Below, piece after piece: positions 3,001 to 13,230 of a stretch of 17,064 nucleotides of DNA. Within the stretch, counting starts at the first letter, position 1. Every line of letters begins with the position of its first letter. The position numbers and the translations under genes are program-made. The notes below the pieces were generated by a model. The model was not told the DNA's origin, did not search any database, and saw only the letters and a list, made by a program, of their open reading frames with translations. Source of the DNA: an uncultured Pseudomonadota bacterium (GTDB lineage: Bacteria; Myxococcota_A; Bradymonadia; Bradymonadales; GCA-2716585); the NCBI GenBank assembly GCA_937890335.1, contig CALBXO010000197.1, forward strand, positions 1 through 17,064, written 5' to 3'.

Positions 3001-3108
3001 CGTGACCGAGAATCCGCGGTCCGCGAATTCGTGGGCGGCGGTGAGGCCAGCGATGCCGCCGCCAAAAATGGCGACGTTGACCTGGCTCAGATTCAGCGGA
3101 TTGCTCAT
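1..3108 (-). CDS. Large flavin-binding amine-oxidase/phytoene-desaturase-like oxidoreductase with a WD40-like (beta-propeller-type) insertion. The N-terminus is complete (ATG 3108-3106). The C-terminus runs off the window start, so the protein is longer than 1035 aa.
   Basis: The minus-strand frame at pos mod 3 = 0 has no stop from 3108 down to 1; no stop-terminated ORF is listed in that frame, and my hand translation is continuous. The N-terminus MSNPLNLSQVNVAIFGGGIAGLTAAHEFADRGFSVTVYEASHQLGG is a GxGxxG dinucleotide-binding fold followed by the GG of amine oxidase/CrtI proteins. An insertion follows with WD-like repeats (GDEDGTVARWQQG, GSTGGTVSIWQASE). The amine-oxidase core then resumes (AGEHGFRFFPSFYRHV), and the C-proximal FAD-contact motif is present (HMKTSTRLSTMESANESARHAVNSVL). 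Third-position GC is high. The ATG overlaps the upstream gene's stop as ATGA. Confidence 0.6.
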   Translation of the reverse strand, partial: MSNPLNLSQVNVAIFGGGIAGLTAAHEFADRGFSVTVYEASHQLGGLARSSYATAPPAQTTAQRTRLQPDDCTIELAVGGKGGSILVAGSAGIGVWYTPTGRFVRVLSQNAPPLLPTEVRALAMDEDAQRLVFASFGDTVPRVVDVRETGVGWDLTGLHTVPVTMVASAPNGAWLLTGDEDGTVARWQQGFTGAYSLNRVWLPLSANTPALSGAIDDFGAGTAVRSDAFLAFPAGAGTTVITFAAVTSATLSGNRTAIASANGPVTSFSGTAPAVDYQGGAPKGDVTVVASDAAGQFIGTGSTGGTVSIWQASEPLKPLWNFELDAPINSMVLTDEFAYVASRRIGTYPHRIWQVDLHAGELVREFDPPQTSMIAGEHGFRFFPSFYRHVTDTMSRIPDPASHRRTVADNLTSTDRQGVALNDGFRTHIFNRKFDLSIAEVFSFLQTTLVSLGYDMRDIALFSLKTFQFLTSGPKRRADYEKISWWDYVDGPSYSPRFQRYLDDLPKVLVALDSRRADARTQGLVFVQLLQDQVSLGGQTDRTLNGPSSEAWFDKWQAWLEKLGVKFKFGERLEHLVLKPATGLTSESILHAEVHNGLNVTQVDDPIMVMAVPARSARQIVENTESVNPWWTPTGDMWRLRHFPVQTSFGVISGIQFFVENEIKILRGHVVYPDSDWALSSISQDQFWDAERRLRMRRDFNIRGQISVVIGAWDQAVQPAPNPLPPGWQSSALVGRAASSVTDPDQLAAEVWRQLRMALDGRSAHPLRELTPRGNLPEPRYYHIDSFPQTPDQGYLLNLIGDWERRPGNLQANGLYKYDVAFGRLVAAGNHMKTSTRLSTMESANESARHAVNSVLEDIGFREDGATVFPLEDWELLEAADFKHLDDILYDAGMPHFLEILGAFNTVANMFPCDPDANINRTELPGATPGALQSLLDCTGVSAADLACGLGISVEELIAADRYLRENPTDPRGSYNPVVGAAAPPGFTHWPFDRPPQAPLDEAMRATLRELLAGPGEPDQSGWTLARRVFHRLDTD

Positions 3109-3611
3109 GGGTGGCTCCCAAAGCGCAAGATCGGTGTAGCGGCGGGGGCGGCGCGGAAGGCGTGCAGGAGACCTGGGAAGCCCAGGCTTCGCACGGCGCC
3201 GTGGAGGTAGAATCCGAGTCCGTCGTGGAAGGCCAGCAACCCGTCCACGCTTCCACGCAGGATCAGTTCGTCTGCCATCACGGCGCTCATCAGGGTGTGC
3301 GTGCCGTCCACAAGCGCCAGGATGGCGCGGCGGTCTGTTGTGACCTCGACGCTCGGCGCCGGCTCCAGCGCGCGCTGCGGAGACAGAGGTACGGAGCGCG
3401 TGGGGCGCAGGTCGACGTCGTCGCTGTGGAATCGAAGATCCAACACGTCCTCGGCGAGTCGCAACCGCACGTGCCGCCCCTCCAGACATCCACACATCCG
3501 GCCAAAGGCGTCAGGTTGTTGCTCGCGCAACACGCCCAGGGAACGGGCCACGAAGTCGGCGGGACCGTCGGGGGTCAATGCGGTCACGCCGCCAAAAACG
3601 AGCTCACTCAC
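3105..3611 (-). CDS. SCP2 (sterol/lipid carrier) domain protein. The preferred start is GTG 3611-3609, which overlaps the upstream stop as GTGAGTGA. An alternative start is ATG 3497.
   Basis: The C-terminal region TTDRRAILALVDGTHTLMSAVMADELILRGSVDGLLAFHDGLGF matches the SCP2 fold signature (..msG.L.i.G....a.kl..l). The frame has about 74% GC3 between 3611 and 3497, arguing for the longer GTG start. The TGA stop at 3107-3105 overlaps the downstream ATG. Confidence 0.55.
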   Translation of the reverse strand: MSELVFGGVTALTPDGPADFVARSLGVLREQQPDAFGRMCGCLEGRHVRLRLAEDVLDLRFHSDDVDLRPTRSVPLSPQRALEPAPSVEVTTDRRAILALVDGTHTLMSAVMADELILRGSVDGLLAFHDGLGFYLHGAVRSLGFPGLLHAFRAAPAATPILRFGSHP

Positions 3612-11968: not shown

Positions 11969-13230
11969 GACGACGCCAGGATCAGCTTCTCCAGGCGGTC
12001 GAGCCCCGCCTCGAGCGACTCCCGCGCGGGTCCGAAGCTGAAGCGTACGTGGTGGCGGAAGCGGCTGGGGCGGGCCGCGCGGCGCTGCCCGGGGTTCACG
12101 TCAAAGAACACGCCGGGCACACAGATGACCTGGGCGTCGAGCGCCTTTCGGAACAGCTTCATGCCGGTGTTGAGGCCCGGCGGGAGGTTGCGCACATTGC
12201 CCCAGACATAGAACGTCCCGCGCGGCGGAACCTCCACCTGCACGCCCATCTGTGTCAGCCGGCTGAGCATGAGGTCGCGCTTGGAGCGGAAGGCGGTCTG
12301 CACCGCCTCGATGGCTGCGTCTGTCGCCTCGGGGGCGAGCAGGGGAATGGCCGCGCGTTGGAGGGGCCGGCCGGCGCCGCCGTCCAGGAAGCTGCCGGCG
12401 CTCGCCAGCTGCGAGACCACATGTTTGGGCCCCACCGCCCACGCCAGTCGCCAGCCCGGGTAGCGCCAGTTCTTGGTCAGCCCATTGATGATGAGGACCG
12501 GGTCGGTCTCGACGTCGTCGACGAATTCAGCGGCACTCACCGTGGCGTTGTCCCCCATCTCGTCGTCCCAGATGTAGTGCGAGTAGAACTCGTCCAGGAT
12601 CAGCGTGCAGTCCACGCTTCGGGCGATGGAGACCAGGCCGCTCAAGGTCTCGCCCGAGATGAGCTTGCCCGTGGGGTTGCACGGGTTCGAGACCAGCAGC
12701 GCCGACAGTCCACGCCCGAGGATCTCGCGTCGGAACTCGGTCAGCGAGAAGTCGTAGCCGCGGTCCGGGTCCAGCAGGATCGGGATGGGGGAGAAGAGCC
12801 GGAAGATGTCCAGCAGCTCCTCGTAGGCGGTGTAGTCGGGCAGCATATGCCCGAGCGTGATCTGGCCGAGCGCCGCCGCCGCGCGGGTCAACGCGGTGCG
12901 CCCACCAGGGCAGATGCACACGTTCTCCGCCGTGTACTGCGACGACTTGCCCTGGCGGTAGAGCCGGTTGTAGTACGCAGCGACCGCCTCACGCAGCTCG
13001 ATCAGGCCGGCGACGGGACCGTATTCATGGTCGTCCATGTCGATCTGGACGGACTCGATGCGGGGCGGGTCTCCCGGAAGCCGACCGGTCTCGGGCATGC
13101 CCTGCCCAAAGTTGGTCCAGGCGGGGTCGCCGCCCTTGTAGCCTTTCTTCTGCGCCTCGGTCATCACGTAGATGACGCCGGTGCGGGGGACATCGCGGAA
13201 CGCGCCTGTGGATCCTCGGTCTTCGATCAT
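11965..13230 (-). CDS. Class I/II-fold PLP-dependent aminotransferase (aspartate/alanine aminotransferase-like); first gene of the operon.
   Basis: The protein is about 421 aa from ATG 13230 (MIEDRGSTGAFRDVPRTGVIYVMTEAQKKGY...). It contains NPCNPTG and GLTKNWRYPGWRLAW, which resemble the NPxNPTG and SKxx..G.R PLP-lysine regions of class-I aminotransferases. An alternative GTG start at 13302 has GGAGG 8 nt upstream. The TGA stop overlaps the thrA ATG. Confidence 0.8.
   Translation of the reverse strand: MIEDRGSTGAFRDVPRTGVIYVMTEAQKKGYKGGDPAWTNFGQGMPETGRLPGDPPRIESVQIDMDDHEYGPVAGLIELREAVAAYYNRLYRQGKSSQYTAENVCICPGGRTALTRAAAALGQITLGHMLPDYTAYEELLDIFRLFSPIPILLDPDRGYDFSLTEFRREILGRGLSALLVSNPCNPTGKLISGETLSGLVSIARSVDCTLILDEFYSHYIWDDEMGDNATVSAAEFVDDVETDPVLIINGLTKNWRYPGWRLAWAVGPKHVVSQLASAGSFLDGGAGRPLQRAAIPLLAPEATDAAIEAVQTAFRSKRDLMLSRLTQMGVQVEVPPRGTFYVWGNVRNLPPGLNTGMKLFRKALDAQVICVPGVFFDVNPGQRRAARPSRFRHHVRFSFGPARESLEAGLDRLEKLILASS

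Follow-up and report, generated by a model that had tools for sequence, protein, structure and literature searches.

A same-strand array in a Bradymonadales bacterium that likely concatenates an aminotransferase gene, a thrABC operon and a conserved seven-gene module with a putative role in isoprenoid lipid metabolism

The threonine biosynthetic genes of Escherichia coli lie on one strand in the order thrA-thrB-thrC within the thrLABC operon, of which the thrL leader is an enterobacterial feature. Carotenoid clusters, a second point of reference for what follows, are built from genes such as crtE for geranylgeranyl diphosphate synthase, crtI/PDS for phytoene desaturase and crtC for a 1,2-hydratase. 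With regard to gene spacing, two reports (PMC6728339; PMC10666635) put overlapping pairs at approximately 15% of the co-directional ones in most prokaryotic groups, with 4 nt and 1 nt being frequent lengths of overlap, and state that termination-reinitiation coupling in bacteria and archaea is backed by 4-nt and 1-nt overlaps and by very short spacers. Here, we report on a 17,064-nt stretch of DNA (hereafter the window) from an uncultured Pseudomonadota bacterium placed by GTDB in the Bradymonadales (GenBank assembly GCA_937890335.1, contig CALBXO010000197.1, positions 1 to 17,064), in which an array of 11 minus-strand genes brings together an aminotransferase gene, thrABC, and a seven-gene module that opens with a polyprenyl diphosphate synthase gene. 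As in E. coli, the thr genes are arranged thrA-thrB-thrC on one strand, ThrA is of the PRK09436 type, and ThrB and ThrC pass their equivalog models. However, thrA is preceded by an aminotransferase gene that overlaps it by 4 nt, thrC has no terminator after it and its stop codon is instead overlapped by the polyprenyl synthase gene, and no thrL leader or attenuator was found. We consider it likely that the array is a lineage-specific, compact concatenation of the aminotransferase gene, thrABC and the module, which elsewhere occur apart, and that their adjacency does not reflect a shared pathway.

The array begins at position 13230 and runs past position 1, and extends over 13.6 kb in the full contig L001, one of three metagenome contigs (L001-L003) that are 100% identical to the window. 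Within the module, the genes follow the order synthase, A, X, Y, H, S and flavoprotein (gene B), an order that recurs on long metagenome contigs and in Sorangium sp. So ce542, where the module spans 7282-13911 of L004. The window is GC rich (63-71%), and the GC content of third codon positions indicates minus-strand coding that is continuous from approximately 13230 to position 1; the gene models are backed both by these frames and by independent calls on the three identical contigs. In those calls the flavoprotein gene, which starts at 3108, is the last of the array and is followed by a convergent gene. An earlier model-generated annotation made from the letters of the window (the sequence-only reading) had described a ten-gene train ending at 3105. 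Its junctions are all in place, but its extent is too short, as the eleventh gene, that of the flavoprotein, leaves the window.

Only four bases within the 11 genes are non-coding, and nine of the ten junctions overlap. Re-reading the minus strand placed all nine of the junctions that had been quoted exactly where they had been reported. The tetranucleotide ATGA joins the aminotransferase gene to thrA (11968-11965), thrB to thrC (8505-8502), thrC to the polyprenyl synthase gene (7255-7252) and gene S to the flavoprotein gene (3108-3105), whereas GTGA joins gene A to gene X (5379-5376). Single-nucleotide overlaps of the form TGATG are found between thrA and thrB (9430-9426) and between genes Y and H (4664-4660), and genes H and S share GTGAGTGA (3611-3604). 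The synthase gene and gene A are separated by a 4-nt gap (TAG-AGCG-ATG, 6232-6223, with the TAG at 6232-6230 and the ATG at 6225). The tenth junction is a 32-nt overlap between genes X and Y (Y starts with TTG at 4964 and X stops at 4933), and relatives have a similar overlap. The array therefore contains five overlaps of 4 nt (four ATGA and one GTGA) and two of 1 nt, along with a single 4-nt gap, such that eight of ten junctions have a 4-nt or 1-nt overlap or a spacer of a few nucleotides, with the other two overlapping by 8 and 32 nt. As to whether these overlaps exceed chance, their density is high, but overlaps are common in prokaryotes and typical of a compact operon; the pattern is what such an operon would be expected to show and is unremarkable in itself. 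Shine-Dalgarno-like motifs lie upstream of thrB (GGGAGG), thrC, Y (GGAGGGG) and the flavoprotein gene, and the other starts are without one.

Scans for sigma-70 promoters and intrinsic terminators, which are crude and tuned to sigma-70, returned no promoter or terminator consensus between thrC and the synthase gene. The only minus-strand consensus sites, at 12231, 3640 and 1981, are located inside coding sequence, and the number of sites is at chance level (11 found compared with 7.0 +/- 2.8 expected). Given that there is neither a promoter or terminator consensus nor intergenic space, read-through transcription is the simplest expectation. Between thrC and the synthase gene there is an overlap of 4 nt in the window and in its relative L090, and a gap of 4 nt in a second relative, L087. 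A junction this tight in two diverged relatives, with no consensus site between the genes, makes co-transcription and termination-reinitiation coupling plausible. The proposal of one translationally coupled polycistron is favored by these observations, and we regard the array as probably co-transcribed and coupled, as judged from the spacing of its genes. Less convincing, and in our view unlikely, is separate expression of the module from a promoter of its own within the 3' portion of thrC, the overlaps being a by-product of compaction. The module is autonomous elsewhere with varied upstream neighbors, so that some upstream promoter is needed there, and a Shine-Dalgarno motif at some starts and none at others would suit mixed modes of initiation; yet the junction has no intergenic space in the window, L090 or L087, no promoter-like or terminator-like consensus is found in or near it, and because there is no terminator, an upstream promoter would read through into the module anyway.

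Outside of the clade of the window, the three units are found apart. One genome per species was scanned with ThrC, and in the resulting 80 thrC loci, the best of which have 65-67% identity (Phycisphaerales, Gemmatimonadales), an aminotransferase or synthase gene within 10 kb was never seen (0/80). The order thrA-thrB-thrC is frequent among these loci, including in Gemmatimonadota, Thermoanaerobaculia/Acidobacteriota and Oligoflexus. Among module loci from other clades, counted where at least 1.3 kb was available upstream of the synthase gene, a match to the aminotransferase, ThrA, ThrB or ThrC was located upstream in 0/20 (approximately 18 of them non-redundant), and the upstream neighbors there are unrelated to thr; a metagenome scan added 80 further loci. 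Orthologs of the aminotransferase are numerous (65-77% identity), are common in Myxococcota and Bradymonadales, with named examples from Myxococcales, Bradymonadaceae and Persicimonas, and are solitary in the two contexts examined (L176 and L177, 69-72% identity). The functional weld of threonine and isoprenoid genes suggested by the sequence-only reading is not supported by the surveys of thrC and module loci. With regard to thrC being followed by the polyprenyl synthase gene in other genomes, this is the case in L087 and L090 and in none of the 80 thrC loci.

The full fusion was found only in close relatives of the window, L087 and L090/L091. In L087, an SPFH gene is followed by the aminotransferase gene, thrA, thrB, thrC, the synthase gene and onward to the flavoprotein gene, and L090/L091 carry the genes from thrA to the flavoprotein. 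Protein identity between the window and these relatives ranges from 53 to 88% by gene and reaches 84-88% for the aminotransferase and the thr products. Across the three lineages, synonymous divergence (dS) is 0.7-1.3 and the ratio of nonsynonymous to synonymous divergence (omega, dN/dS) is 0.07-0.57 for every gene, indicating purifying selection throughout. The array is real and stable within one clade, which is probably Myxococcota-like as judged from named homologs of the aminotransferase and the module. That a metagenome assembly artificially joined a thr operon to the module might be entertained, given that the contigs of this lineage are short (11-22 kb), but three separate ENA assemblies share the junction, which also recurs in two diverged relatives from other samples (Logan and ENA contigs), and the overall and third-codon-position GC content are uniform across it, with similar dS on both sides. 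The assemblies of the source samples are ERZ23486278, ERZ1283799 and ERZ27056333. A chimera is extremely improbable, and is effectively refuted by the independent, diverged copies of the junction.

The thr genes themselves appear standard. The first, thrA (9428..11968, minus strand), encodes a bifunctional aspartate kinase/homoserine dehydrogenase I of 846 amino acids (aa) with AA_kinase, two ACT and Homoserine_dh domains in Pfam, and scores 737.5 bits against PRK09436 (cut-off 726). It is followed by thrB (8502..9428, minus strand) for a homoserine kinase of 308 aa (NF002288, 320.9 bits with a cut-off of 194; TIGR00191, 224 bits with a cut-off of 168) and by thrC (7252..8505, minus strand) for a threonine synthase of 417 aa (TIGR00260, 269.3 bits with a cut-off of 167.1; PALP, E=5e-62), the latter flanked by ATGA overlaps on both sides. 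These are the most constrained genes of the array (omega 0.07-0.15), which together with their scores as standard equivalogs argues against the idea that they form a neo-functionalised paralog cluster. We infer that they do their normal housekeeping job, with which the low omega is consistent, without being proof. The lack of a thrL leader had also been considered unusual. No Rfam family is detected in the window at gathering scores, and the Thr-leader family has no match in 13231-13877 even at E up to 10; however, given that the leader is characteristic of enterobacteria, its lack here is not unusual, although the 80 comparison loci were not searched for a leader.

A more ambitious interpretation is that the array is a functional super-operon, in which the aminotransferase and thrABC supply homoserine, O-phosphohomoserine or threonine for attachment to, or use with, an isoprenoid, and the thr copies are dedicated or neo-functionalised. 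Three lineages at dS of approximately 1 have retained the fusion with its tight junctions, this clade alone has gained an extra aminotransferase gene at the head of the array, and the fold of gene B is common to amine oxidases, all of which would be in keeping with such an arrangement. Nevertheless, we think it quite doubtful: the thr proteins are standard equivalogs and the most constrained in the array, the 20 other module loci are without a thr or aminotransferase neighbor just as the 80 thrC loci never carry the module, the flavoprotein core best matches phytoene desaturase and not an amine-specific enzyme, and in Pfam and NCBIfam scans no enzyme capable of linking an amino acid to a lipid was recognised, be it a ligase, a transferase or a condensation enzyme. 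Overall, the data examined lend no support to neo-functionalised thr paralogs or to a metabolic link between thr and the module. More speculative still, and to our minds very improbable, would be recruitment of the thr genes and the aminotransferase gene as a supply line for the module, such that all 11 genes serve to make an amino-acid-decorated or amine-containing isoprenoid lipid, with a C8 tract in gene A (described below) acting as a phase-variable switch.

Several points weigh against a concatenation without shared function that is read as one coupled unit. Co-transcription and coupling are both deduced from spacing, and promoters inside thrC may exist, given the crude, sigma-70-tuned scan. 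The junction has stayed tight across approximately one synonymous substitution per site, which could also mean selection for co-expression, and co-regulation within this clade is possible. Contigs of no more than 22 kb leave room for a second thr operon, or for asd, which may be located elsewhere in the genome. Finally, the module to which we have tentatively assigned a role in isoprenoid metabolism has neither a phytoene nor a squalene synthase.

The first gene of the array (11965..13230, minus strand) encodes a class I/II aminotransferase of 421 aa dependent on pyridoxal 5'-phosphate (PF00155, E=1e-32). Its closest solved structure is the Thermus aspartate aminotransferase 1bkg (105 bits), by which it can be called aspartate-aminotransferase-like; it is far under every NCBIfam equivalog cut-off, and the profiles thus do not support a substrate assignment. 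Immediately abutting its ATG is a block of approximately 45 nt (13231..13275, minus strand) that is near-identical in L087. Beyond this block the spacer has diverged between the window and L087, and the ATG is kept. Conservation of the block despite a diverged spacer suggests a promoter with a very short leader. It holds TATACA 12 nt ahead of the ATG, and was missed by the sigma-70 consensus scan. The block is therefore put forward as a candidate promoter, which suggests a nearly leaderless mRNA and no attenuator.

Under the concatenation that we favor, a promoter just upstream of the aminotransferase gene would drive the array, with transcription reading through thrC into the module, and the stop/start overlaps would allow ribosomes to terminate and re-initiate. 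The thr genes would keep their housekeeping role from aspartate to threonine, whereas the module would separately make or modify a C20-type isoprenoid lipid through prenyl chain synthesis, FAD (flavin adenine dinucleotide)-dependent desaturation or oxidation, hydration or cyclisation by a barrel protein, and lipid handling by an SCP2-like protein. Their adjacency could have come about by genome compaction or rearrangement. The gene train alone matters little, as ATGA and TGATG junctions are an everyday feature of compact operons and the thr genes are of the usual kind. The locus does provide a clean natural example of how a solitary gene, a housekeeping operon and an accessory module, each an independent transcription unit, have merged into one uninterrupted array and been held together over substantial divergence, which could inform work on how operons arise and become coupled.

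Of greatest interest in this region is the module, a conserved seven-gene set with a predicted isoprenoid role that is carried by Sorangium and by many contigs from soil and freshwater metagenomes, and whose overlaps recur at the same junctions in unrelated genomes. Its first gene (6230..7255, minus strand) encodes a short-chain trans polyprenyl diphosphate synthase of 341 aa that resembles geranylgeranyl diphosphate (GGPP) synthase (PF00348, 196 bits, E=6e-58). The motifs DDxxD (DDFED) and DDxLN (DDVLN) are kept in all module orthologs. The protein is under all NCBIfam equivalog cut-offs, and the GGPP-type label is based on the closest solved structure, that of Thermus GGPP synthase (1wmw, 182 bits). 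In one locus (L092, 6881-9064), the module synthase is fused to a radical SAM domain.

Genes X (4933..5379, minus strand, 148 aa) and Y (4662..4964, minus strand, 100 aa, TTG start) match no Pfam or NCBIfam family above threshold. X is conserved in module loci of other lineages, and Y, which is supported by gene calls on the identical contigs and by its third-codon-position GC frame, has orthologs in all module loci. Matches of A, X and Y to TetR_C_20, DnaG_DnaB_bind, Latarcin and DUF4232 were far under threshold and were dismissed as noise.

Gene H (3604..4662, minus strand, 352 aa) had been labeled CrtC-like. Its AlphaFold model (mean predicted local distance difference test score, pLDDT, 87) is a double beta-barrel of the AttH/CrtC/tocopherol-cyclase superfamily, for which Foldseek returned AttH as the best match (2ich, E=1.6e-11, template modeling (TM) score 0.63-0.68) along with 7a0q, 6kbc and 9g4c; kievitone hydratase, the fungal pericyclases CghA/Fsa2 and 25-phosphosteroid lyase are among the fold matches. 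At the level of sequence, 18/30 orthologs weakly match Tocopherol_cycl and 17/30 match DUF2804, all under the Pfam gathering score, with these weak matches centered on an invariant YHDHNWG motif. Homologs of H form 326 clusters. CrtC itself (PF07143) is matched neither by gene H of the window (E up to 0.01) nor by the 30 orthologs (E up to 1). Gene S (3105..3611, minus strand, 168 aa) possibly encodes an SCP2-like lipid-binding protein, with a sub-threshold match to PF02036 (15.5 bits, cut-off 21.3) that is also weakly seen in 5/8 orthologs (best E=0.0015). Searching PDB sequences with profiles of H and S gave nothing usable. The protein labels of the sequence-only reading were consequently about right: thrA, thrB and thrC pass their equivalogs, and the CrtC-like protein has a fold of the AttH/CrtC superfamily, but PF07143 is unmatched and the SCP2 assignment is sub-threshold.

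The last module gene, B, encodes an FAD flavoprotein, and its first 1036 of 1148 codons are contained in the window (1..3108, minus strand), with the full length available in L001. The protein matches NAD_binding_8/Amino_oxidase at residues 11-52, and a WD40 beta-propeller is inserted after the FAD-binding motif (residues ~60-380). The core was examined using a model of the 650-aa ortholog P0174 from another module locus (L095) (pLDDT 85), for which rice phytoene desaturase was the top match (5mog, E=1e-15, TM-score of 0.77 normalised to the target). Further matches comprise the amine oxidases NicA2 and MAO, the oleate hydratase OhyA and a CrtI-like desaturase (4rep). Gene B reaches no HpnE, CrtI, CrtD or PDS equivalog cut-off; approximately the first 40 residues match, and the HpnE score is 49.5 bits compared with a cut-off of 283. 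The WD40 insertion is found in the clade of the window and in L005, and OmpA-like C-terminal domains occur in several gene B homologs (among P0134-P0156 and P0233). In P0233, a polyprenyl synthase is fused to a flavoprotein of the gene B family, which supports a functional link between the synthase and the flavoprotein.

Gene A (5376..6225, minus strand) had been read as a single open reading frame for a Cys-rich protein, which it is not in the window. The N-terminal frame starts at the ATG at 6225, the C-terminal frame ends at 5376, and the two halves, being in different frames, are separated by a +1 frameshift at a run of eight C (5919..5926, minus strand; G8 on the plus strand). This is the longest homopolymer and the sole run of at least 8 bases in the 17-kb window. 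The frame indicated by third-codon-position GC changes near 5900-5925, and intact orthologs of 274 aa (L087) and 271 aa (L090) match the two window frames in tblastn, with the change located at 'CC|PP..SSLAP' in the ortholog alignment. At the level of DNA, relatives read GGCCCGTCG where the window has C8, and therefore have no homopolymer; seven C instead of eight would restore the frame. The tract is identical in L001 and L002, the two other assemblies that cover it, although these are possibly not independent samples. Both halves of gene A have dN/dS below 1 relative to their counterparts, indicating that the break is recent, is an assembly error, or is bypassed by slippage. The tract could accordingly be phase-variable, serve as a slippage site, mark a recent pseudogenisation or stem from an assembly error. 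Two genuine overlapping genes were considered and ruled out, as the orthologs are single open reading frames and the break falls exactly in the C8 run. Gene A has no Pfam or NCBIfam family match.

Taken together, a GGPP-synthase-like enzyme, a desaturase-fold flavoprotein, an AttH-fold barrel and an SCP2-like protein point to synthesis and modification of an isoprenoid lipid, in which predicted desaturation or oxidation would be followed by hydration or cyclisation. We found no characterised module member, and nothing relevant in the literature on thrABC plus polyprenyl or on COG3349. On the opposite strand, just downstream of the module, a gene for a large Ser/Thr protein kinase with an AAA_16 domain is located in 5/6 distinct stand-alone loci examined (L004, 14500-18357; L005, 15668-19558; L093, 14014-17568; L094, 15313-19158; L095, 17636-21044), and such a gene likewise follows the module on the contig carrying P0002, a relative from the clade of the window. 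This recurrence suggests that the kinase may be a conserved regulatory partner of the module. In the clade of the window itself, the gene downstream of the module has no Pfam match.

Other features are located on the right flank of the array. Between the aminotransferase gene and an SPFH/Band-7 gene is a conserved tRNA-like element (13543-13650, plus strand, core 13554-13635; approximately 1134-1233 on the minus strand of L087). The element is permuted, with a T-arm and 3' acceptor strand followed by the 5' acceptor strand, D-arm and an anticodon-like hairpin. Covariation is seen at one acceptor pair, which is A:U in the window but G:C in L087, and the two also differ in the anticodon-like loop (UUU and GUU, respectively). 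The top Rfam match of the element is YrlA (Y RNA-like), which is sub-threshold in both lineages (34.3 and 30.8 bits compared with a gathering score of 69). ARAGORN called no tRNA in the window, including at this element, the fold z-score of the element is not significant, and the window shows no Ro/Rsr gene. The SPFH/Band-7 gene is divergent (13878/13935-15020, plus strand) and is also the left neighbor of the array in L087. A strong hairpin 3' of this gene (15030-15062, plus strand), with 15 pairs of which 12 are G-C, fits the terminator-like pattern of the scan, and beyond it an AAA+ ATPase gene (approximately 15200-17064, plus strand) leaves the window.

With respect to described systems, the array resembles translationally coupled gene pairs (Huber et al. 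2019, PMC6728339; PMC10666635) in that its genes are co-directional and are joined through ATGA or TGATG overlaps or set apart by very few nucleotides. It differs in that coupling is here predicted from gene spacing, in that 8-nt and 32-nt overlaps are also present, and in that one gene is frameshifted, which would interrupt the chain of coupling at that point unless the frame is restored. For gene H, the closest families at the sequence level are the tocopherol cyclase (PF14249), DUF2804 and AttH-like barrels, the matches being weak, and its fold is held in common with AttH, kievitone hydratase and 25-phosphosteroid lyase. A point of difference is that no homogentisate or quinone prenyltransferase accompanies it in the module. 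The closest parallel for the module as a whole is the carotenoid cluster, with which it has in common a GGPP-synthase-like enzyme, a core fold like that of phytoene desaturase and a fold of the AttH/CrtC superfamily. In contrast to carotenoid clusters, the module is without the phytoene synthase gene crtB and reaches no CrtE, CrtI, CrtD, HpnE or PDS equivalog cut-off. Three conserved family-less proteins, variable insertions in the flavoprotein and the lack of a phytoene or squalene synthase set it apart from carotenoid and hopanoid clusters. Relative to the carotenoid clusters, the module adds, besides those three proteins, an SCP2-like protein, in this clade a WD40 insertion, and often a downstream gene on the opposite strand for a Ser/Thr kinase with an AAA_16 domain.

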